Positions 5,030 through 20,317 of a DNA stretch of 20,317 nt are shown here, one piece after another (the first letter of the stretch is position 1; each line of letters starts with the position of its first letter). The translations under genes and the position numbers were made by a program. The notes under the pieces are model-generated. The model saw nothing but the letters and a program-made list of their open reading frames with translations. It did not search any database and was not told where the DNA came from. The stretch lies in UHGV virus genome UHGV-1756682. One strand, given 5' to 3'. This DNA comes from a virus.

Positions 5030-5746
5030 TCAAACCAGCCTTAGTTTTGTCTCAATTGCAACGCCTATAATCTTGCAGTTTCCATTGATTGGCACGAGAG
5101 GCCATGCAGGATTAAGTCCCTTGAGGTATTTATTTCCGCCGTCGATTATCAGCTTCTTGAATGTTGCTTCGTTAGAGTCAGAAAGTTTTGCTATGACCAA
5201 GCTGCCGTTGATCGCCTCCCTTCCGGTATCGAAAAGAACGAATGTTCCCTCTGGAATGCTTAACCCAACCGGTGCCGTCATTGAATCACCTTCCACTTTA
5301 AGCCAGAACGCATTACCTTGAATATGCGCGTCAGACTCAAGCCAAACATCTATGTCTTTAATGGTGTATGGTTCGCATGCTTCACACCACGAGCCAGCCT
5401 GGATACTGCTTAACACCGGATACCTCTTTCCTGCTCTGTATTCCCCTGCATACCTTACGTTGGCATCGCTCTTAAGGCTTTCTGCCTGTTCTGCAACCTT
5501 GGCAGCAATTGACTGGCTAAAATCAGCAATTGAGACTTGCAACAATCGTGCAAAACCAGATGCAACCTCAACGTTTAGCGCGTTTCTGCCATTAAGATAA
5601 TGCCCTACCGCTCCTTGGGTGATACCCAGTTCATCAGCAATTGAGTATTGGGTTATTCCCAATTCTTTCTTTTTTGACTCATACAAAGCCTTAAGCCGCT
5701 TAGCGTCTTCCAGCTGTTCTGTCGTCAGTGATTTTTTATTTTCCAT
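5030..5746 (-). CDS. cI: CI repressor (HTH plus LexA-like S24 autopeptidase domain)
   Basis: N-terminus MENKKSLTTEQLEDAKRLKALYESKKKELGITQYSIADELGITQGAVGHYLNG parallels lambda cI. C-terminal domain has the Ala-Gly site (SSIQAGSW), GDSM serine and FKKL lysine. Confidence 0.9.
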   Translation of the reverse strand: MENKKSLTTEQLEDAKRLKALYESKKKELGITQYSIADELGITQGAVGHYLNGRNALNVEVASGFARLLQVSIADFSQSIAAKVAEQAESLKSDANVRYAGEYRAGKRYPVLSSIQAGSWCEACEPYTIKDIDVWLESDAHIQGNAFWLKVEGDSMTAPVGLSIPEGTFVLFDTGREAINGSLVIAKLSDSNEATFKKLIIDGGNKYLKGLNPAWPLVPINGNCKIIGVAIETKLRLV

Positions 5747-9106: not shown

Positions 9107-9517
9107 ATGAAGCAAACAATCTTCCTCCGAACTAAGCAACAACAGCAATCCGCAATCAACGCCATCCTCGCAACACCACTCGATAAAGACAAGCCAGTCA
9201 CCATCCGCATTACTGACTACAAGCGCAACCTTGACCAGAACGCAAAATTTCACGCGATGCTGGCGGATATCGCACGTCAGGTTAAATGGTGCGATAAGTG
9301 GTTAAAACCAGAACAATGGAAGGTTTTGTTGATAAGCGGTCATGCAGTGGCTACAAAGCAGGAAGCTGATGTTTTGCCCGGGCTTGAAGGCGAATACGTC
9401 AACATTCGCGAAAGCAGCGCGCAGATGAGTGTGAAGCGTATGGCAAGTCTGATTGAGTACACGACAGCCTGGGCTATTGGTCAGGGTGTCAGATTTACCG
9501 ACAGGAGGTATGAATGA
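9107..9517 (+). CDS. ninB: NinB (Orf-family recombination mediator)
   Basis: [21 protein letters not shown]...[22 protein letters not shown] parallels lambda NinB (...RNRSLDQNRKLWACLGDVSRQVEW). Confidence 0.85.
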
Positions 9518-9690
9518 GGCGACAGCGACGAAGTTTCACCGACATCATCTGCGAAAACTGCAAATACCTTCCAACGAAACGCTCCAGAAATAAACGCAAG
9601 CCAATCCCAAAAGAATCTGACGTAGAAACCTTCAACTACACGGCTCACCTGTGGGATATCCGGTGGCTAAGACATCGTGCGAGGAAATGA
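9514..9690 (+). CDS. ninE: NinE-like small basic protein (58 aa)
   Basis: Hand-translated [64 protein letters not shown] 9514 overlaps the ninB stop; AGGAGG 5 nt upstream. Matches my recollection of lambda NinE. Not in track (<60 aa). Confidence 0.6.
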
Positions 9691-9692
9691 CG

Positions 9693-10637
9693 ATGACTGC
9701 GTATTACAACGAAATAGATCCGTATGCAGCGCAATGGCTGCGTAACTTAATTGACGCTGGAGAAATTGCCCCCGGTTATGTAGATGAAAGGAGTATTGAA
9801 GATGTCACACCAGGTGATTTGCGAGGATTTACCCAGCACCACTTTTTTGCAGGAATCGGAGTTTGGAGCTATGCACTTAGAAAAGCAGGATGGCCAGACA
9901 ACAAGAGTATCTGGACAGGAAGTTGCCCATGCCAACCTTTCAGCTCGGCAGGCAAAGGAAAAGGGGTTGATGACGAGCGGCACTTATGGCCGGCATTCTT
10001 CTGGCTTATTGAAAAATGCAATCCTGGCATCGTTATTGGCGAACAGGTTGCAAGCGCAGACGGCCTCGCTTGGCTCGACCTTGTACAAACTGACTTGGAA
10101 GGTGCGAACTACACCTCTGCAGGTACCGATATTTGCGCTGCGGGCTTCGGTTCTCCGCACATTAGGCAGCGATTGTATTGGGTGGCCTACTCCAACGACA
10201 AATATCAACTTTCAGCCAGAGACGCGCAGGGGAATTCAGAACCTATCTGGATGCGTGAGACTAGCGGGATGGCAAACTCCTTTAGCGAACGATGCAACAG
10301 GTTCAACGCATTGCTACAGCGGAAAAGACAAGAGCGGAACCCCAAGAATCTGCTTGAAACTTCCCGGGACGGTGAAGCTATGTACCCATTACCGGTTAAC
10401 GGCTTCTGGAGAGATGCAGACTGGCTTTACTGTAGAGATGAAAAATATCGTCCAGTTAGACCCGGCTCATTCCCGATGGTTAATGGCATTGCCAAAAGCT
10501 TGGGACGAGGCAAGTCCACACTGGGAAGAATGGCAAAGCGCAATCAAGATCAGCGAATTATTGGATATGGAAACGCAATCAATGCAGAAGTAGCAACGGC
10601 ATTCGTGAAAGTTTGTATGGAGGTTGTTAATGCTTAG
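9693..10637 (+). CDS. orphan DNA cytosine-5 methyltransferase
   Basis: Frame-0 translation carries C5-MTase motifs: I-like FFAGIGVWS, IV GSCPCQPFSSAG, VI-like GEQV, VIII HIRQRLYW, X GYGNAINAEVATAF. Start ATG 9693 (GAGGA 7 nt upstream); ATG 9687 overlapping the ninE stop is an alternative. No adjacent restriction endonuclease gene. Confidence 0.75.
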   Translation: MTAYYNEIDPYAAQWLRNLIDAGEIAPGYVDERSIEDVTPGDLRGFTQHHFFAGIGVWSYALRKAGWPDNKSIWTGSCPCQPFSSAGKGKGVDDERHLWPAFFWLIEKCNPGIVIGEQVASADGLAWLDLVQTDLEGANYTSAGTDICAAGFGSPHIRQRLYWVAYSNDKYQLSARDAQGNSEPIWMRETSGMANSFSERCNRFNALLQRKRQERNPKNLLETSRDGEAMYPLPVNGFWRDADWLYCRDEKYRPVRPGSFPMVNGIAKSLGRGKSTLGRMAKRNQDQRIIGYGNAINAEVATAFVKVCMEVVNA

Positions 10638-10806
10638 CCCATCCCAATCCATTCAATACCAGAAAGAAAGCGTCGAGCGGGCTTTAACGTGCGCTAACTG
10701 CGGTCAGAAGCTGCATGTGCTGGAAGTTCACGTGTGTGAGCACTGCTGCGCAGAACTGATGAGCGATCCGAATAGCTCAATGTACGAGGAAGAAGACGAT
10801 GAGTGA
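10630..10806 (+). CDS. ninF: NinF-like protein (58 aa, Cys-rich)
   Basis: MLSPSQSIQYQKESVERALTCANCGQKLHVLEVHVCEHCCAELMSD matches my recollection of lambda NinF. ATG 10630 with GGAGG 6 nt upstream. Confidence 0.7.
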   Translation: MLSPSQSIQYQKESVERALTCANCGQKLHVLEVHVCEHCCAELMSDPNSSMYEEEDDE

Positions 10807-11068
10807 TTTCTCTGAGCTTATTTCCTTCAAAAAAGACAGAGAAGAAATGCAGACTGAATCTGTCTATTACGTTCAACACCGGAATAAACGCTCGGTGCTT
10901 GATCAGGAGCTGGTTATTACCGGAGACCTGGCATTCAGAACATATAAGGCCAGAATGGAAATGAAGGATTTCCCTAAATGTGGTTCTGAAAGAGAAGCCG
11001 CGTTAAAGCTGGCAGAGTGGATGCAGAGAATGGCTGCTGCAATTGAGAATTACTGGAGCGAACCATAA
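10799..11068 (+). CDS. hypothetical protein (89 aa)
   Basis: Track ORF; start overlaps the ninF stop and its stop overlaps the ninG ATG (TAATG). Confidence 0.5.
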
Positions 11069-11679
11069 TGGCTAAACCAGCGCGAAGACGATGTAAAAAC
11101 GATGAATGTCGGGAATGGTTTCACCCTGCATTCGCTAATCAGTGGTGGTGCTCTCCAGAGTGTGGAACAAAGATAGCACTCGAACGACGAAGCAAACAGC
11201 GCAAAAAAGCGGAAAAAGCAGCAGAGAAGAAACGACGACGAGAGGAGCAGAAACAGAAAGATAAACTGAAGATTCGAAAACTCGCCTTAAAGCCCCGCAG
11301 TTACTGGATTAAACAAGCCCAACAAGCCGTAAACGCCTTCATCAGAGAAAGAGACCGCGACTTACCATGTATCTCGTGCGGAACGCTCACGTCTGCTCAG
11401 TGGGATGCCGGACATTACCGGACAACTGCTGCGGCACCTCAACTCCGATTTGATGAACGCAATATTCACAAGCAATGCGTGGTGTGCAACCAGCACAAAA
11501 GCGGAAATCTCGTTCCGTATCGCGTCGAACTGATTAGCCGCATCGGGCAGGAAGCAGTAGACGAAATCGAATCAAACCATAACCGCCATCGCTGGACTGT
11601 CGAAGAGTGCAAGGCGATCAAGGAAGAGTACCAACAGAAACTTAAAAAACTGCGAAATAGCAGAAGTGAGGCTGCATGA
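11068..11679 (+). CDS. ninG: NinG/Rap-like recombination protein
   Basis: 203-aa ORF with Cys clusters ([34 protein letters not shown]) and basic linker, as in lambda NinG. Confidence 0.85.
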
Positions 11680-12545
11680 CGTTCTCAGTAAAAACCATTC
11701 CAGACATGCTCGTTGAAGCATATGGAAACCAGACAGAAGTAGCACGCAGACTGAAATGTAGTCGCGTTACGGTCAGAAAATACGTTGATGATAATACGTT
11801 GATGATAAAGACGGGAAAATGCACGCCATCGTCAACGACGTTCTCATGGTTCATCGCGGATGGAGTGAAAGAGATGCGCTATTACGAAAAAATTGATGGC
11901 AGCAAATACCGAAATATTTGGGTAGTTGGCGATCTGCACGGATGCTACACGAACCTGATGAAAAAACTGGAGACGATAGGATTCGACACCAAAAAAGACC
12001 TGCTTATCTCGGTTGGCGATTTGGCTGATCGTGGTGCAGAGAACGTTGAATGCCTGGAATTAATCACATTCCCCTGGTTCAAAGCTGTACGTGGAAACCA
12101 TGAGCACATGATGATTGATGGCTTATCAGAGCGTGGAAACGTCAATCACTGGCTGCTTAATGGCGGTGGCTGGTTCTTTAATCTCGATTACGACAAAGAA
12201 ATTCTGGCTAAAGCTCTTGCCCATAAAGCAGATGAACTTCCGTTAATCATCGAGCTGGTGAGCAAAGATAAAAAATATGTCATTTGCCACGCCGATTATC
12301 CTTGTAACGAATACGAGTTTGGAAAGCCAGTTGATCATCAGCAGGTAATCTGGAACCGCGAACGACTCAGCAACTCACAAGACGGGATCGTGAAAGAAAT
12401 CAAAGGCGCGGACACGTTCATCTTTGGTCATACGCCAGCAGTTAAACCACTCAAATTTGCCAACCAGATGTATATCGATACCGGCGCAGTGTTCTGCGGA
12501 AACCTCACATTGATTCAGGTACAGGGAGAAGGCGCGTGGGCATAA
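11676..12545 (+). CDS. ninI: NinH-NinI fusion ORF; C-terminal 224 aa is a NinI-type Ser/Thr protein phosphatase
   Basis: N-terminal 37 aa match lambda NinH; from [24 protein letters not shown]...GNHEHMM the sequence is a lambda-PPase-like metallophosphatase. The two are joined in one frame by a 14-bp tandem duplication at 11781-11808. NinI keeps its own ATG 11874 with GGAG 8 nt upstream. Confidence 0.75.
11781..11808 (+). repeat. perfect 14-bp tandem duplication (TACGTTGATGATAA x2) inside ninH
   Basis: Read directly: 11781-11794 and 11795-11808 are identical. Confidence 0.9.
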
Positions 12546-13054
12546 GAGAACTAAACCTCACCAAAGAACAGCATGAGTGGCTGAATGGCTGGCTTGAACT
12601 GTGGGGCGCATGGGTTTATTCAGGTCGTCTGGAAAAGCGCATGAGCAGCGTAATAGCGAAGTTCATGGAGAGCGTAGAGCCGGGAAGAGTTATGACAAGG
12701 CCAATGTGTAATGATGATGATGGAATGTTGATTTCTCAGGTCGTCGATTCCGTCATGTACATTGACAAGAAAGCCTTTGGCATCCTCCTCAGCTACTACG
12801 CTCATGGTTCATCTAAGCGAGCAATTGCATCCTACTATCACGCGACTGCAAAGCCACGCAAGATGTGTGGACGTGGTGGCGAGGGATGGAGAAAACCTTC
12901 ACTGGCAACCTGTAGAAACGAAATTGACGACATCCTGAAAGCGTCGTTATTTGTTTTGTACCAGCCAATGCAAAATGCTTTCAAAATGCGTAAACGTGTT
13001 GAGAAAGTTAAGCATGTTGCTGTTAAAAGCCTTGACATGCAATTATCCATTTAG
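12536..13054 (+). CDS. Q: late antiterminator Q (QuuD/phage 82-like type)
   Basis: Position immediately before PR' and the lysis genes. Shares ELWGAW..., CNDDDGM and SYY features with E. coli QuuD as I recall it. GTG start 12536 overlaps the ninI end. Confidence 0.75.
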
Positions 13055-13061
13055 CCATAAT
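13032..13061 (+). promoter_or_regulatory. candidate late promoter PR'
   Basis: TTGACA 13032-13037, 18-bp spacer, CATAAT 13056-13061, overlapping the Q stop as in lambda. Confidence 0.4.
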
Positions 13062-13072
13062 TAGAAGGTAAG

Positions 13073-13113
13073 CTACCGTTAGTGACTCTTAAGTTGCAAC
13101 GGTGGCTTTTTTT
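13073..13113 (+). terminator. PR'-proximal intrinsic terminator (tR'-like)
   Basis: Stem ACCGTT 13075-13080 / AACGGT 13098-13103, extendable with a G-U pair, then a 7-T run 13107-13113. Downstream sequence (GCACAACAGGTAAGAGCATTGA...) resembles the lambda tR' region from memory. Confidence 0.5.
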
Positions 13114-13533
13114 GTTTGCACAACAGGTAAGAGCATTGAACCCTCAGACCTCGCGGAATTGGTGAAAGGTGCCGCGCAGTGCTCTTATCGTTGTGGTGAA
13201 TGCACAGGCTGATGTGTAAGGGCAAGAATCTTTCGCTGGATTCGGTGTGGCCACGTAGCCCGCTGTAGGCAGTTGCAGCAAACCGGAGATCAGCACCGGT
13301 CGCCACAATCCAAACTGAGCCGTAGCCACTGGCTATCCTGAACTCATCAGTGATAGTTATGCTGCGGCCTTCTACATATGACCTTCGTGAAAGCGGGTGG
13401 CAAGAGGCTGCGCTAACAACCTCATGCCGTTTTGCCCGTGCATATCGGTCACGAACAAATCTGATTACTAAACACAGTAGCCTGGATTTGTTCTATCAGT
13501 AATCGACCTTATTCCTAATTAAATAGAGCAAAT

Positions 13534-13547
13534 CCCCTTATTGGGGG
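13534..13547 (+). promoter_or_regulatory. sdi-like hairpin masking the S ribosome-binding site
   Basis: CCCC-TTATT-GGGGG immediately upstream of the Met1-Lys-Met3 dual start of S. Confidence 0.5.
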
Positions 13548-13553
13548 TAAGAC

Positions 13554-13877
13554 ATGAAGATGCCAGAAAAACATGACCTGTTATCCGCCATTCTCGCGGC
13601 AAAGGAACAAGGCATCGGGGCAATCCTTGCGTTTGCAATGGCGTACCTTCGCGGCAGATATAATGGCGGTGCGTTTACAAAAACAGTAATCGACGCAACG
13701 ATGTGCGCCATTATCGCCTGGTTCATTCGTGACCTTCTCGACTTCGCCGGACTAAGTAGCAATCTCGCTTATATAACGAGCGTGTTCATCGGCTACATCG
13801 GCACTGACTCGATTGGTTCGCTTATCAAACGCTTCGCTGCTAAAAAAGCCGGAGTAGAAGATGGTGGAAATCAATAA
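13554..13877 (+). CDS. S: holin S (class I, dual-start holin/antiholin)
   Basis: [64 protein letters not shown]... is near-identical to lambda S. Confidence 0.9.
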
Positions 13878-14337
13878 TCAACGTAAGGCGTTCCTCGATA
13901 TGCTGGCGTGGTCAGAGGGAACTGATAACGGACGTCAGAAAACCAGAAATCATGGTTATGACGTCATTGTTGGCGGAGAGCTATTCACTGATTACTCAGA
14001 TCACCCTCGCAAACTTGTCACGCTAAACCCCAAACTCAAATCAACAGCAGCCGGACGTTACCAGCTTCTTTCCCGTTGGTGGGATGCCTATCGTAAGCAG
14101 CTTGGCCTGAAAGACTTCTCTCCCAAAAGCCAGGACGCTGTTGCGCTGCAGCAGATTAAGGAGCGTGGCGCTTTGCCGATGATTGATCGCGGTGATATCC
14201 GTCAGGCTATCGACCGTTGCAGCAATATCTGGGCTTCACTGCCGGGCGCTGGTTATGGTCAGTTCGAGCATAAGGCTGACAGCCTGATTGCAAAATTCAA
14301 AGAAGCAGGCGGAACGGTCAGAGAGATTGAGGTATGA
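13861..14337 (+). CDS. R: endolysin R (lytic transglycosylase)
   Basis: [59 protein letters not shown]... is near-identical to lambda R. Overlaps the S end. Confidence 0.9.
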
Positions 14338-14771
14338 GCAGAGTCACCGCGATTATCTCTGCTCTGGTTATCTGTATCATCGTCTGCCTGTCATGGGCTG
14401 TTAATCATTACCGTGATAATGCAATCGCCTACAAAGAACAGCGCGATAAAGCTACATCCATCATCGCTGACATGCAGAAGCGTCAACGTGACGTAGCAGA
14501 ACTCGATGCCAGATATACAAAGGAGCTTGCTGATGCTAACGCGACTATCGAAAGTCTCCGTGCTGATGTTTCTGCTGGTCGTAAGCGCCTGCAAGTCGCC
14601 GCCACCTGTGCAAAGTCAACGACCGGAGCCAGCAGCATGGGCGATGGAGAAAGCCCAAGACTTACAGCAGATGCTGAACTCAATTATTACCGTCTCCGAA
14701 GTGGAATAGACAGGATAACCGCGCAGGTTAACTACCTGCAGGAGTACATCAGGACTCAGTGCCTGAAATAA
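14334..14771 (+). CDS. Rz: spanin inner-membrane subunit Rz
   Basis: [34 protein letters not shown]... matches lambda Rz. ATGA overlap with the R stop. Confidence 0.85.
14533..14709 (+). CDS. Rz1: spanin outer-membrane lipoprotein Rz1, embedded in Rz in the +1 frame
   Basis: ATG 14533 with GGAG 7 nt upstream. Signal peptide and lipobox ([20 protein letters not shown]), then a proline-rich segment ([13 protein letters not shown]). Confidence 0.7.
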
Positions 14772-14802
14772 TTTTTTTGCAAATCACAAAGTCCATTTAA
14801 TG

Positions 14803-14827
14803 AGCCTCGCGATGCGGGGCTTTTTTA
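14803..14827 (+). terminator. intrinsic terminator after the lysis cassette
   Basis: GC-rich stem GCCTCGC 14804-14810 / GCGGGGC 14814-14820 with one G-U pair, followed by TTTTTT 14821-14826. Confidence 0.6.
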
Positions 14828-14973
14828 TGTCCGCAGTAAACGCGCTTCACACGCGCGACTTATGAACACAGAACCTTTCAGGATGACCCTTGAGGATGCC
14901 GGTTTGGTGATCGGTACCTTTCTGTGGGCCGGAATCCTGTGTGACAAGGTTCATCACTAAAAGGTAATTACTG

Positions 14974-15504
14974 ATGAAGTACCCAACAGTTATTGTCAAT
15001 GGTGTGTCCGTTCGTGTTGATGAGGATGGACGCTACAACTTAAACGATCTCCATGCAGCAGCAGTTGCAAATGGAGAGGCTACAGAGTAACAGCGCCCAA
15101 GCCAGTTTTTGCGTAGCGCGCAGATAAAACGCTTCATCAAAGCACTGGAGGCCAAAGTGCAAAAAAGCACTTTGGAACAAATTCAACCACTTAAAATAAT
15201 CAAAGGTGGTGCAGAACCAGGTGTGTGGGGTGTTGAACTTCTGGCAATCAGATATGCAGCATGGATTAAGCCGGAATTTGAAATCGAAGTTTATGAAGTT
15301 TTCAAAACGGTTGTCCGTCTCGGCGTTGGCGCAATGTCCCGTCTGAATAGAATCGATCACATCATCAATACTGAAACCAAAGCGATAAGCCAGTGCGCAA
15401 GACAAATGGCTAAGTGGGGTGTTGGTGGGCGAAAAAGATTGCTTCATGTTGCACGTGAGAGAGCGGCAAATGAAGTGCAAATGTATTTGCCCGGGATGGT
15501 GTGA
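14974..15504 (+). pseudogene. KilA-N domain gene interrupted by an in-frame TAA (ochre) at codon 39
   Basis: From ATG 14974: MKYPTVIVNGVSVRVDEDGRYNLNDLHAAAVANGEATE, then TAA at 15088-15090, then the same frame continues without an ATG through ...GVWGVELLAIRYAAWIKPEFEIEVYEVF... to the stop at 15502-15504. Both halves belong to one KilA-N domain. Confidence 0.6.
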
Positions 15505-15609
15505 TTTCGCAGGTTAATCCGAGCAGTCCTTCAGTGAGGCTGCAATAATGCTTTATTCGTATGAAGACGAAGGGTAATCTGTAGACTCTGATTATCTAAT
15601 GGAAGGTTT

Positions 15610-15816
15610 ATGATGGACAATTATTTTAAATCTGGCGATAACCGAGTATCTGATTCTGAGCACCAGCGTTTAGTGGCTACCAAAGCAGCTCTTGAAATTA
15701 TCAAGGCCGCCGTATCTGCCCCTACTCATGCGAAAAACGTGTCTTATGATTTGGAGGAGGCAATAAAATATCTTCCACGGTTGACTGATGCTATTCAGGA
15801 AACGATTGGCAAATAG
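15610..15816 (+). CDS. hypothetical small helical protein (68 aa)
   Basis: Track ORF with GGAAGG upstream of the ATGATG start. Followed by an AU-rich hairpin plus T-run at 15869-15891. Confidence 0.5.
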   Translation: MMDNYFKSGDNRVSDSEHQRLVATKAALEIIKAAVSAPTHAKNVSYDLEEAIKYLPRLTDAIQETIGK

Positions 15817-15956
15817 CATTTGATTTTAGTTTTATTATCTCACCTTAAATATGAGTGAGATTAATACAAAGCTACCTACGAGTAGCTTTTTAATGGCTTG
15901 TACCTTACACGGGATAACTTAACTGATATCCCCACAAGCGGATAAAGAGATTCTCA

Positions 15957-16082
15957 ATGTCCAACATCTACCAAATCACGTTAACCACCCAAACAGGCGA
16001 AACCGTTACGAGCAAGACGTCACGATTTCAGCATGAGTTGGTTAACGGCTTTGTGCCGCTTGTGATCGAGACGGGAGAGTGA
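15957..16082 (+). CDS. small ORF (41 aa), possibly the 5' part of an opal-interrupted 63-codon gene
   Basis: ATG 15957 with AAGAGA 6 nt upstream. After the TGA at 16080-16082 the frame stays open for 21 more codons (LYFSPDNVKRIQFTPELNDEA) to the TGA at 16146-16148. Confidence 0.3.
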   Translation: MSNIYQITLTTQTGETVTSKTSRFQHELVNGFVPLVIETGE

Positions 16083-16212
16083 CTGTATTTCTCTCCCGAC
16101 AATGTGAAGCGCATACAGTTCACGCCAGAATTGAATGATGAAGCGTGATAAGTGGCTATTTTGTGGTATAGGTTTATGCGCTAAAACAATCAATTAGCTC
16201 AGTCAATGATCT

Positions 16213-16737
16213 CTATTGTCCTGCAACTTGTTTAGTGAGTCTTAGGATGATGCTGCCAAGAATAGCTATGAATTTTTCACGATTATTGGCATCTGGACGG
16301 TTAAGATTCAGCTCAATGTCTCCAACTTTTATGCCGAATCTTGCTGAGTTAATGAGATCTTCCTGACCACCTCGGCTAATAAATGTTCGTAATGATTCAA
16401 TTTCTGCGTCAGTTATTTCCGGGTTGTCTATTTGATGAGAGCGAACATTTCTTATTCTATTTAGGCGTTTAAGTTCTGCGACGGAGTGTTCATTTAGGCC
16501 GAGGTTGGCAGCTAGCTGAATTTTTGCGGCATAGGTCATGGTTAAGATTTCACCAAATCCATCAAATAGATTTTGGTTACCTACAGCGGCGCAACAAAAT
16601 GCCTCAATCATTGCTTCTGTAATCAGATGTACTCTTAAAACCAAACCAATATCATCTTCAGTATTTACTAACCTTTCAATTCGTTGCCAAGTTGCTTCGT
16701 TCATTATGAACTTTGATTCAAAAATTTCAGGATTCAT
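16213..16737 (-). CDS. hypothetical protein (174 aa), antisense moron between lysis and packaging genes; HEPN-like R-x4-H motif (speculative)
   Basis: Track ORF on the minus strand. ATG 16735-16737 with AAGGT upstream. Only 27 bp separate its start from the divergent terS start. DNA visibly AT-rich. Contains LNRIRNVRSHQ. Confidence 0.6.
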   Translation of the reverse strand: MNPEIFESKFIMNEATWQRIERLVNTEDDIGLVLRVHLITEAMIEAFCCAAVGNQNLFDGFGEILTMTYAAKIQLAANLGLNEHSVAELKRLNRIRNVRSHQIDNPEITDAEIESLRTFISRGGQEDLINSARFGIKVGDIELNLNRPDANNREKFIAILGSIILRLTKQVAGQ

Positions 16738-16764
16738 TTATTTACCTTATCAGCAGGGGAAAAT

Positions 16765-17292
16765 ATGGCGCTCACTGACAAACAAGAAATGTTCTGTCGC
16801 GAGTACCTCATCGATTTAAACGCCACGCAAGCGGCTATTCGGGCGGGGTACAGCGCAAAAACAGCCAACCGTACTGCGTCCGAAAACATGTCAAAACCTG
16901 ACATACAACTCAGAATCTCCGAATTGAAAGCACAACGCAATGACTCTGTTGGAATAAATGCAGAATATGTACTTAATCGCCTTATTGAAATCGACCAGAT
17001 GGATGTGCTCGACATTCTCCTGCAAAACGGTGAGTTAAAGCCCATTAAAGACTGGCCTAAGGTATGGCGCACAACGTTATCAGGAATGGATGTTGTGGAG
17101 ATGGTATCCGCAGATAGTGCAGCACTCCTGAAGAAAATCAAATGGCCTGATAAGGTTAAAAACCTCGAACTTCTTGGTAAGCATGTTTCTGTTCAGGCGT
17201 TTAAAGAACAAGCTTCTCACGAACTAACAGGCAAAGACGGCGGCGCAATCCAGATTGAAACATCACCGATGAGCACTCTATTCGGAAAATGA
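16765..17292 (+). CDS. terminase small subunit
   Basis: MALTDKQEMFCREYLIDLNATQAAIRAGYSAKTANRTASENMSKPDIQLRISELKAQR is a typical terS HTH N-terminus. Directly precedes terL with an ATGA overlap. Confidence 0.85.
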   Translation: MALTDKQEMFCREYLIDLNATQAAIRAGYSAKTANRTASENMSKPDIQLRISELKAQRNDSVGINAEYVLNRLIEIDQMDVLDILLQNGELKPIKDWPKVWRTTLSGMDVVEMVSADSAALLKKIKWPDKVKNLELLGKHVSVQAFKEQASHELTGKDGGAIQIETSPMSTLFGK

Positions 17293-18701
17293 CCTCGATT
17301 AATCCTATCTTTGAACCGTTCATTGAGGCGCATCGCTACAAAGTCGCCAAAGGCGGTCGAGGTAGCGGTAAGTCATGGGCAATTGCGAGGCTTCTTGTTG
17401 AAGCGGCGCGTCGGCAGCCTGTGCGTATTCTTTGCGCTCGTGAGCTGCAAAACAGTATCAGCGATTCGGTAATCCGGTTGCTTGAAGACACCATCGAGCG
17501 TGAAGGATATTCGGCTGAGTTTGAAATTCAGCGTTCCATGATTCGTCATCTCGGAACGAATGCTGAATTCATGTTCTACGGCATCAAAAACAACCCGACG
17601 AAGATTAAATCGCTCGAAGGCATTGATATCTGTTGGGTGGAAGAAGCTGAAGCGGTAACGAAGGAATCATGGGATATCCTGATACCAACCATCCGCAAGC
17701 CATTTTCCGAAATATGGGTGAGCTTCAACCCGAAGAACATACTCGACGATACCTATCAGCGGTTCGTCGTAAATCCTCCTGATGATATTTGCCTGCTGAC
17801 GGTGAACTACACCGACAACCCGCACTTTCCTGAAGTTCTCCGTCTGGAGATGGAAGAGTGCAAACGCAGAAATCCGACACTGTATCGTCACATCTGGCTT
17901 GGTGAGCCAGTAAGCGCAAGTGATATGGCAATCATCAAACGTGAATGGCTTGAAGCCGCAACCGATGCGCACAAGAAACTCGGATGGAAAGCGAAAGGCG
18001 CTGTTGTTTCTGCACATGACCCGTCAGATACAGGGCCAGATGCTAAAGGTTACGCATCGCGCCACGGTTCGGTAGTTAAGCGCATTGCCGAAGGTCTGCT
18101 GATGGACATCAACGATGGTGCTGACTGGGCTACTTCGCTGGCGATTGAAGACGGCGCTGACCACTACCTGTGGGATGGTGATGGTGTTGGTGCCGGGCTA
18201 CGCAGACAGACAACGGAAGCGTTCTCCGGCAAGAAAATCACCGCCACGATGTTCAAGGGCAGCGAATCGCCGTTCGATGAAGATGCACCGTATCAGGCCG
18301 GAGCATGGGCTGATGAAGTCGTGCAGGGCGACAACGTTCGCACTATTGGCGATGTGTTCCGCAATAAGCGAGCGCAATTCTATTACGCGCTGGCTGACAG
18401 GCTGTATCTGACATATCGGGCGGTTGTCCACGGTGAGTATGCAGACCCCGACGACATGCTGAGTTTCGACAAAGAAGCGATAGGCGAGAAGATGCTGGAG
18501 AAGCTGTTTGCAGAACTGACGCAGATTCAGCGCAAATTCAATAACAACGGGAAGCTGGAGCTTATGACTAAGGTCGAAATGAAGCAGAAGCTCGGTATTC
18601 CATCTCCTAACCTGGCTGATGCGCTGATGATGTGTATGCATTGCCCGGCATTGGTCCGCGAAGAAACAGAAATATACGTTCCCTCATCCTCCGGTTGGTA
18701 A
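17289..18701 (+). CDS. terminase large subunit (ATPase/nuclease)
   Basis: 470-aa ORF with Walker A (VAKGGRGSGKSWA) and Walker B-like (IDICWVEEAE) motifs and a C-terminal nuclease-like region. Confidence 0.9.
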   Translation: MTSINPIFEPFIEAHRYKVAKGGRGSGKSWAIARLLVEAARRQPVRILCARELQNSISDSVIRLLEDTIEREGYSAEFEIQRSMIRHLGTNAEFMFYGIKNNPTKIKSLEGIDICWVEEAEAVTKESWDILIPTIRKPFSEIWVSFNPKNILDDTYQRFVVNPPDDICLLTVNYTDNPHFPEVLRLEMEECKRRNPTLYRHIWLGEPVSASDMAIIKREWLEAATDAHKKLGWKAKGAVVSAHDPSDTGPDAKGYASRHGSVVKRIAEGLLMDINDGADWATSLAIEDGADHYLWDGDGVGAGLRRQTTEAFSGKKITATMFKGSESPFDEDAPYQAGAWADEVVQGDNVRTIGDVFRNKRAQFYYALADRLYLTYRAVVHGEYADPDDMLSFDKEAIGEKMLEKLFAELTQIQRKFNNNGKLELMTKVEMKQKLGIPSPNLADALMMCMHCPALVREETEIYVPSSSGW

Positions 18702-18703
18702 AC

Positions 18704-20317
18704 ATGGCAGAGACATTAGAGAAAAAACATGAGCGGATCATGCTCAGGTTTGACCGCGCCTATTCTCCACAGCAGGAAGTGCGCGAAAAGTGCATTGAAG
18801 CTACGAGGTTTGCTCGTGTCCCCGGAGGTCAATGGGAAGGAGCAACGGCGGCTGGAACTAAGCTTGATGAGCAGTTCGAGAAGTATCCTAAGTTTGAAAT
18901 CAATAAGGTAGCAACTGAACTTAACCGCATCATTGCAGAATACCGCAATAACAGAATCACTGTTAAGTTTCGTCCTGGTGACAGAGAGGCAAGCGAAGAG
19001 TTAGCCAATAAATTAAATGGTCTGTTCCGTGCTGACTACGAAGAAACTGATGGCGGTGAGGCTTGCGATAATGCATTTGACGACGCTGCTACTGGTGGTT
19101 TCGGTTGCTTCCGTTTGACGTCGATGCTGGTCAATGAATACGACCCCATGGACGATCGTCAGCGTATTGCTATTGAACCAATATACGACCCGTCGCGCTC
19201 TGTGTGGTTTGACCCTGACGCTAAGAAGTACGACAAATCTGACGCGTTGTGGGCGTTCTGCATGTATTCGTTGTCACCTGAAAAATATGAGGCTGAATAC
19301 GGAAAGAAACCTCCTGCTTCTCTGGATGTAACGTCTATGACCAGTTGGGAATATGACTGGTTTGATGCAGATGTTATTTACATAGCGAAGTATTACGAAG
19401 TTCGTAAAGAGTCTGTTGACGTCATCAGTTATCGACATCCAATCACTGGAGAGATTGCAACATACGACAGTGATCAGGTTGAAGATATTGAAGATGAACT
19501 GGCAATAGCTGGATTTCATGAAGTGGCAAGGCGCTCAGTGAAGCGCCGTCGTGTGTATGTATCCGTAGTGGATGGTGATGGTTTCCTTGAGAAACCTCGA
19601 CGTATTCCTGGTGAACATATCCCCCTCATCCCGGTTTATGGAAAACGCTGGTTCATTGATGACATTGAGCGTGTCGAAGGGCATATTGCAAAAGCAATGG
19701 ATCCACAGCGTTTGTACAACCTTCAGGTATCAATGCTGGCTGATACTGCAGCGCAAGACCCCGGTCAGATCCCTATAGTTGGCATGGAGCAAATTCGTGG
19801 ACTTGAGAAGCACTGGGAGGCTCGCAACAAGAAACGACCAGCGTTCTTGCCGTTGCGCGAAGTGAGAGATAAATCTGGCAACATCATCGCTGGAGCTACC
19901 CCGGCAGGATATACACAGCCCGCGGTTATGAATCAGGCATTGGCTGCATTACTACAGCAAACCAGTGCTGATATTCAGGAGGTTACAGGCGGCAGTCAGG
20001 CCATGCAGCAGATGCCAAGTAATATTGCTCAGGAAACGGTTAACAACTTGATGAACAGAGCAGATATGGCTTCGTTTATCTATCTGGACAATATGGCGAA
20101 AAGTCTTAAACGCGCTGGTGAAGTATGGCTGTCAATGGCTCGTGAAGTGTACGGTTCAGAGCGTGAAGTGCGCATCGTTAACGAAGATGGAAGTGATGAT
20201 ATCGCTGTCCTGAGCGCACAGGTTGTTGACAGGCAAACAGGGGCTGTTGTTGCGTTAAATGACCTTTCTGTCGGTCGATACGATGTGACGGTTGATGTTG
20301 GACCAAGCTACACAGCA
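18704..20317 (+). CDS. portal protein, P22 gp1-like (3' end beyond window)
   Basis: Frame open from ATG 18704 to the window end (538 codons). Translation parallels P22 portal as I recall it (EHIPLIPVYGKRWFIDD... versus EHIPIVPVFGEWGFVED...; ...GRYDVTVDVGPSY versus ...GRYECYTDVGPSF). Absent from track because no in-window stop. Confidence 0.85.
   Translation, partial: MAETLEKKHERIMLRFDRAYSPQQEVREKCIEATRFARVPGGQWEGATAAGTKLDEQFEKYPKFEINKVATELNRIIAEYRNNRITVKFRPGDREASEELANKLNGLFRADYEETDGGEACDNAFDDAATGGFGCFRLTSMLVNEYDPMDDRQRIAIEPIYDPSRSVWFDPDAKKYDKSDALWAFCMYSLSPEKYEAEYGKKPPASLDVTSMTSWEYDWFDADVIYIAKYYEVRKESVDVISYRHPITGEIATYDSDQVEDIEDELAIAGFHEVARRSVKRRRVYVSVVDGDGFLEKPRRIPGEHIPLIPVYGKRWFIDDIERVEGHIAKAMDPQRLYNLQVSMLADTAAQDPGQIPIVGMEQIRGLEKHWEARNKKRPAFLPLREVRDKSGNIIAGATPAGYTQPAVMNQALAALLQQTSADIQEVTGGSQAMQQMPSNIAQETVNNLMNRADMASFIYLDNMAKSLKRAGEVWLSMAREVYGSEREVRIVNEDGSDDIAVLSAQVVDRQTGAVVALNDLSVGRYDVTVDVGPSYTA

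Follow-up and report, generated by a model that had tools for sequence, protein, structure and literature searches.

KilA-N genes and P22-like prophages

Phage P1 carries the host-killing gene kilA, from which the KilA-N domain takes its name. The domain itself is poorly characterised and is viewed as a putative DNA-binding module (PMC8585504; Iyer et al. 2002, cited there). The P22-like Salmonella prophage BTP1 encodes BstA, a two-domain protein of abortive infection in which a KilA-N-like domain occupies residues 32-147 (PMC8585504). Here we describe a KilA-N gene that is interrupted by one stop codon in the viral genome UHGV-1756682, and we compare it with intact and broken copies of the same gene elsewhere. 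The whole stretch of DNA that was analysed, 20,317 nucleotides in length, is referred to below as the window. In our assessment the interruption is very probably a recent, lineage-specific nonsense mutation, and the locus a young pseudogene of a dispensable accessory gene.

The window covers the early and late region of a P22-like (Lederbergvirus-type) lambdoid prophage of E. coli. Its genes encode a RecT recombinase, a cI-type repressor, CII, a replication protein and a DnaB helicase (the last two as called in the carrier locus L088, described below), NinB, a C5 methylase, NinG, NinH and a NinI-type phosphatase. They are followed by the genes for the Q antiterminator, holin, lysozyme and Rz, the KilA-N gene, two small genes of no assigned function, and the genes for the small and large terminase subunits. 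The same order runs on into the P22 portal, scaffold and coat genes, which are annotated in E. coli SW4848 and are also present in L088. One feature between Rz and the KilA-N gene bears on how the latter may be transcribed:

14802..14831, plus strand: terminator-like hairpin (9 pairs, 6 of them G-C; 14802-14822) with a run of T residues, lying after Rz and upstream of the KilA-N gene; a putative terminator

No promoter-like site was found between this hairpin and the ATG of the KilA-N gene. Because the gene also lies downstream of Q and the lysis genes, it is probably part of the late operon, as far as gene order can tell.

Several other reading frames of the window deserve mention in their own right. 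A frame at 14772-14960, which encodes 32 amino acids from its ATG (phrog_16173; a 54-aa gp30 in phage UPF_BP1), runs through the 14802-14822 hairpin, and since it does so its conservation may be due to the terminator and not to a protein product. Between the KilA-N gene and the terminase genes, on the opposite (minus) strand, lies a 174-aa ORF at 16213-16737 (phrog_5483) for which no match was found in Pfam, PADLOC or NCBIfam. This ORF has a nonsynonymous change at 16547 that is private to the window, which encodes Ile64 there; the residue is Asn in L071 (the nearest relative of the window with an uninterrupted KilA-N gene) and in 9 of the 10 fetched contigs that share the interruption. A 227-aa ORF on the minus strand at 3341-4024 matches Pfam Nmad5 (nucleotide modification associated domain 5) with 239 bits; it lies downstream of the repressor gene (5030-5746), which is encoded on that strand too, and it has no PADLOC match. 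The C5 cytosine DNA methylase ORF at 9651-10637 (plus strand) matches its Pfam profile over residues 87-214 only (profile positions 64-196 of 324), and public calls give it 314 amino acids.

The interrupted gene

The KilA-N gene occupies one reading frame on the plus strand, 14974..15504, which on translation consists of 38 sense codons from the ATG, TAA at 15088-15090, a further 137 sense codons, and TGA at 15502-15504. The TAA is the sole interruption of the frame. Its parts are as follows:

14974..15090, plus strand: N-terminal remnant of the KilA-N gene, from the ATG through 38 sense codons to the ochre stop; predicted product MKYPTVIVNGVSVRVDEDGRYNLNDLHAAAVANGEATE; a 38-aa product recorded on 23 contigs
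15088..15090, plus strand: ochre codon TAA, produced when a C-to-T transition at 15088 altered CAA (Gln39); the only difference in 551 nt from the copies in E. coli EC931 and SW4848
15091..15504, plus strand: remainder of the ancestral frame, codons 40-176 and TGA, encoding the last two thirds of the KilA-N domain and the C-terminal region

When the frame is read through the stop, the joined translation matches Pfam KilA-N (PF04383; gathering score 23.8 bits) with 64 bits and E = 1.3e-17, over residues 9-113 and profile positions 6-104 of 107. Taken separately, the N-terminal piece gives 14.6 bits over profile positions 6-28, which is below the cut-off, and the piece after the stop, begun at a TTG, gives 35.5 bits over positions 38-104. 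The TAA at codon 39 thus breaks the domain near profile position 30-37. Because the two matches are consecutive on the profile and lie in the same frame, the pieces are successive parts of one domain, and a chance arrangement is excluded. The initial annotation had described 14974..15504 as one frame encoding the N- and C-terminal parts of a KilA-N domain and interrupted by the TAA alone, and the score of the joined frame, set against those of its halves, bears this out. Its further statement that no in-frame ATG follows the stop has to be amended, since ATG occurs at codons 121, 145, 170 and 175; all four lie past the KilA-N domain, and the first possible restart is, as had been said, the TTG at 15109. 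The window does not encode an uninterrupted KilA-N domain, whereas all of the relatives that we examined outside the lineage carrying the TAA do so.

The intact protein matches phrog_129, "transcriptional regulator", at 4.6e-60, and DNA binding by the KilA-N domain is a predicted property of the 176-aa product. The C-terminal 60 or so amino acids of the 176-codon frame lie outside this domain and contain no recognised domain of their own. Comparison with solved structures (PDB, by sequence) gave no meaningful match, and a literature search on KilA-N genes in P22-like prophages yielded no paper. With regard to a role in defence, no PADLOC-DB v2 model matched at E <= 0.01 (the presence of a BstA model in that set being unconfirmed), and there was no NCBIfam match.

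The ancestral codon and the intact gene

In the prophages of E. coli EC931 and SW4848, the corresponding 551 nt differ from the window at one base (99.8% identity), namely C for T at 15088, which makes codon 39 CAA (Gln). The gene is annotated there as a 531-nt CDS for a "KilA-N domain-containing protein", WP_000877023.1. Among the 79 complete E. coli genomes that hold the gene, a 61-mer containing CAA is matched exactly in 70 and the equivalent 61-mer containing TAA in none; the other nine have some other mismatch and match neither 61-mer exactly. A search of IMG/VR, metagenome and fetched loci with the variable base set to N gave 84 matches, every one of them with C; among them, C is found at this base in each of the 67 contigs from IMG/VR and the 13 metagenome contigs, 80 copies in all. 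The same pattern had no match in the species-representative genome collection. Codon 39 is CAA in EC931, SW4848, TW10598, MG40 and ST104, and TCT (Ser) in UPF_BP1 and ST64B. Alignment with intact homologues, which had been proposed as the way to identify the ancestral codon, thus identifies it as CAA (Gln39), and the change is a single C-to-T substitution at 15088.

The gene is found uninterrupted well beyond E. coli. In the Salmonella phages ST104, MG40 and UPF_BP1 the orthologue is annotated as 531 nt, or 176 codons, without a break and in the same slot between Rz and terminase, and in Salmonella phage SE1 a KilA-N gene lies beneath the same full-length match. More distant homologues in 171 phage records, including those of P1 KilA, SfV, mEp460 and APSE-2, align over residues 6-114 without a break. 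When the repaired window gene is compared with the Salmonella phage orthologues, Nei-Gojobori dN/dS is 0.10-0.12 over the gene as a whole; when the gene is divided at codon 39, codons 1-38 give 0.05-0.3 and codons 40-176 give 0.09-0.12. Because homologues are uninterrupted and both sides of codon 39 show a low dN/dS, the intact gene is normally maintained as one unit under purifying selection. The initial annotation had reasoned that its view of a broken gene would fail if homologues ended naturally at this position and were followed by a conserved downstream gene with its own start. The homologues do not end at codon 39, no such separate gene is conserved, and the view of a broken gene has survived this comparison. 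A naturally split gene was considered and rejected on similar grounds: the phage orthologues are all single ORFs, the other truncations that we have found break the gene elsewhere, and the GGAGG-GTG motif described below, from which a second product might start, is not conserved.

Distribution and age of the TAA allele

Gene calls on 23 contigs (NCBI, Logan and ENA), from isolates and metagenomes that are independent of one another, include the exact 38-aa product of the window. The sources of such contigs include the NCBI isolate assembly GCA_046707425.1 (on a 93-kb contig), five Logan SRA runs and four ENA metagenome assemblies. All of the ten carrier contigs that were fetched have the TAA; they are 99.8-99.99% identical to the window and do not differ from it at any position within 14974-15504. 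The closest record, L088 (contig JBJLPV010000015.1 of GCA_046707425.1), has 2 mismatches to the window in 15.3 kb. Because the phage sits within far longer DNA in the carrier contigs, of which the longest is 93 kb among those with the 38-aa product and 1.16 Mb among those with a 115-aa product from the other side of the stop, the carrier phage is an integrated prophage.

These records also decide whether the T at 15088 might be an error of sequencing or assembly in a source that truly has CAA. Such an error could be suspected from the single-base difference between the window and the nearest intact alleles, and from the absence of the T from the complete E. coli genomes, IMG/VR, the metagenome contig set and the phage collection. 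Against this, the 23 contigs with the 38-aa product come from independent projects and assemblers and all represent the same near-identical prophage. Sequencing error is effectively refuted by them, and we consider its probability negligible.

Among relatives with CAA the nearest is the IMG/VR contig L071, which over 9514-19021 has 99.68% identity to the window, and the C-to-T change is the sole difference between the two from 13585 to 15725. Within the TAA clade the broken gene has accumulated no further substitutions, and 15091..15504 is identical across all TAA carriers and the intact EC931 and SW4848 alleles. Intact products are found on more than 1000 and on 419 contigs, as compared with 11-23 contigs for the 38-aa product. 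Because the stop is the only change in this interval relative to L071, has been followed by no other substitution in the gene and is recorded on few contigs in comparison with the intact alleles, the TAA allele is both young and rare, and the last 137 codons are still pristine because the mutation is recent.

The sequence of events would then be a simple one. A 176-codon accessory gene with an N-terminal KilA-N domain, situated in the slot between lysis cassette and terminase of a P22-like E. coli prophage, would have undergone a C-to-T change at 15088 that made a TAA out of the CAA (Gln) at codon 39. Translation begun at the ATG (14974) would now stop after 38 residues, about one third of the way into the domain, and the full-length protein would be lost, since the frame contains a stop codon and no suppressor was found. 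If the gene does belong to the late operon, any polar effects of this on the terminase and head genes would be limited by antitermination, to judge from the biology of lambdoid phages.

Possible readthrough of the stop or internal restart

An intact frame downstream of a stop might also mean that the stop is regularly bypassed, and the initial annotation had offered suppression or readthrough as its second explanation. Full-length protein would in that case be made by means of an ochre suppressor tRNA or of the TAA-C context. Besides the fully intact frame, the 91 nt from the stop onward speak for such a mechanism to the extent that they fold modestly better than shuffled sequences (z = -2.5). 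However, the sequence around and downstream of the stop is identical in the CAA alleles, and because they share it the fold cannot have evolved for the stop; nothing has evolved around the stop. The stop is not conserved among homologues, being confined to a lineage whose members are 99.8-99.99% identical and absent from all other copies. No tRNA gene was detected by ARAGORN in the window, L071 or the carrier loci L088-L090, a scan confined to part of the prophage, and no Rfam family matches the window. Both release factors of E. coli recognise UAA, and very little natural readthrough of this codon occurs. A following C does not give UAA its strongest termination context in this species, and trace readthrough of the TAA-C could still occur. 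The intactness of the downstream frame is accounted for by the youth of the mutation. With the stop restricted to one tight lineage and neither a tRNA nor a recoding element to be found, the suggestion of a gene that needs suppression or readthrough does not hold up, and programmed bypass of the stop seems to us very improbable.

A different possibility is that translation restarts within the gene, that a C-terminal fragment of 131 or 115 amino acids is useful, and that the allele is a neomorph and not a null. Two sites come into question:

15109..15111, plus strand: TTG, codon 46, the earliest codon beyond the stop (by 18 nt) at which translation could restart in frame; not preceded by a Shine-Dalgarno sequence
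15147..15159, plus strand: GGAGG, a 5-nt spacing and an in-frame GTG (codon 62) at 15157; the start chosen by gene callers for the 115-aa fragment on public contigs

In favour of a functional fragment, the second of these has GGAGG placed 5 nt before the GTG and is the start that callers choose. In addition, C-terminal fragments of 110-126 amino acids recur in the databases, and the C-terminal 60 residues of the protein lie outside the KilA-N domain. On the other side, the 115-aa product would lack over half of the KilA-N domain. In the predicted fold, the GTG at 15157 is base-paired within an 8-bp hairpin formed by 15153-15160 and 15167-15174. The orthologues of UPF_BP1 and ST64B encode ALKAKAQK here and lack the GGAGG-GTG motif, and since they do without it the motif is not a conserved internal start. 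As for the TTG, it has no Shine-Dalgarno sequence, and no gene with the 131-aa product that would start from it was found among the contig records. The recurrent fragments begin at whatever start a caller can find after lesions of various kinds, as the debris of pseudogenes would, and the TAA clade is too young to show selection on a fragment. A C-terminal fragment might be made at a low level, and nothing indicates that it is functional; we regard a useful split product as improbable.

Independent disruptions and dispensability

The KilA-N gene has also been broken in other prophages, at other positions and by other kinds of lesions. The ST64B orthologue, sb54, has a stop of its own at codon 140; two IMG/VR contigs (L061 and L064) share a 25-nt deletion that leaves a 66-aa N-terminal fragment; and a metagenome contig (L075) has a 14-nt deletion. 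Protein clusters contain N-terminal fragments of 42, 44, 46 and 55 amino acids, with varying endpoints, and C-terminal fragments of 110, 115 and 126 amino acids from E. coli, Shigella and Salmonella; the 110-aa fragments are found on 133 and 109 contigs. In a sample drawn without regard to the allele, 72 of 75 full-length copies were intact. The loss of the gene would be tolerated because the gene appears to be dispensable, copies in E. coli, Shigella and Salmonella prophages having been broken independently elsewhere. For an accessory gene of a prophage it is ordinary to be disrupted in a few percent of copies. Two protein families may also have arisen from such copies. Of the intact protein, phrog_18199 matches residues 2-72 only and phrog_10441 residues 68-176 only, boundaries that do not coincide with codon 39, and these families were probably built from fragments of disrupted copies (e.g., the 66-aa N-terminal and 110-126 aa C-terminal fragments) and not from separate genes.

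The recurrence of such disruptions might be taken as a sign that loss of the gene is advantageous, either because the intact KilA-N protein harms the lysogen, in the manner of host-killing by P1 kilA, or because it triggers a host defence. Several disruptions are independent and some of them are common, as the contig counts of the 110-aa fragments show, and the domain bears the name of a host-killing gene. These points are outweighed by others. Besides the large majority of intact copies in the independent sample, intact products are recorded on well over 1000 contigs, and a dN/dS of about 0.1 indicates that the gene is normally kept. If it belongs to the late operon, as gene order makes probable, it would be silent in the lysogen, and the observed rate of disruption is unremarkable for a gene of this class. 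Adaptive loss is accordingly an explanation to which we give little credence. On a broader reading, the many independent N-terminal truncations in E. coli, Shigella and Salmonella prophages would not be neutral decay: they would reflect selection to drop the DNA-binding half and keep a C-terminal fragment, which in the window would start from the GGAGG-GTG, or selection to silence a host-toxic or defence-triggering protein. This too we consider unlikely.

The window has a second lesion, in ninH. A 14-bp tandem duplication (AATACGTTGATGAT, present twice) at 11779-11806 shifts the frame of ninH after codon 39 and joins it to the downstream frame of the NinI-type phosphatase. The resulting fused ORF, 11676-12545 on the plus strand, encodes 289 amino acids that match NinH positions 1-40 and then Metallophos; with one 14-bp copy removed, the sequence again encodes a normal NinH of 68 amino acids. 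The duplication is common to the window and L088 and is absent from L071 and from the three complete E. coli genomes that span this segment in full. Two independent lesions of different type in accessory genes fit slow decay of the prophage. The first explanation offered by the initial annotation was that an accessory gene, decaying within an otherwise intact-looking prophage, had recently acquired a nonsense mutation. The first part of this agrees with a single C-to-T change, with CAA in the relatives and with confinement to one tight lineage; the impression of an otherwise intact prophage is at odds with the frameshift in ninH.

Implications for annotation

The nonsense mutation at codon 39 is an event of an already known kind, a textbook single-base change in one narrow lineage, and its biological weight is small. 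Its practical value lies in annotation: the locus is best recorded as one pseudogene and not as two CDSs, and the "KilA-N domain-containing" products of 38, 115 and 131 amino acids are calls of fragments. The C-to-T at 15088 and the 14-bp duplication in ninH also make a handy pair of markers with which this prophage lineage can be traced across isolates and metagenomes.

Comparison with known systems

The closest counterparts of the window gene are the E. coli copies encoding WP_000877023.1 and the genes orf45 of ST104, "KilA" of MG40 and gp31 of UPF_BP1. All are the same 531-nt gene in the slot between Rz and terminase of P22-like phages; at the nucleotide level the E. coli copies are 99.8% identical to the window gene and those of the Salmonella phages 87-94%. 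They differ from it in having CAA (Gln) or TCT (Ser) at codon 39 and an uninterrupted product of 176 amino acids, where the window has TAA. The ST64B gene sb54 resembles the window gene in being an orthologue that is also shortened by a nonsense mutation (it is annotated as 420 nt). The event is nonetheless an independent one, a change from Gln to a stop at codon 140, by which the protein loses only its C-terminal tail and keeps a complete KilA-N domain.

P1 KilA, with which the KilA-N domain was founded, is homologous to the window protein in its N-terminal domain, with 33.7% identity over residues 7-110 (tblastn); this is the domain in which the window protein matches PF04383. The likeness is limited to this domain, or 59% of the query, and the settings of the genes differ: the P1 match lies under kilA next to repL features, whereas the window gene lies in a lambdoid late region. 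Host killing is a trait of P1 kilA, and the resemblance of the window protein to it is one of N-terminal domain sequence. BstA shares with the window protein its origin in a P22-like prophage and an N-terminal KilA-N or KilA-N-like putative DNA-binding domain. It differs in that the window protein, when intact, has 176 amino acids in all and matches nothing in PADLOC or NCBIfam. This suggests, as a weak form of negative evidence given that a BstA model in PADLOC-DB v2 is unconfirmed, that the window KilA-N protein is not demonstrably a member of the BstA family.
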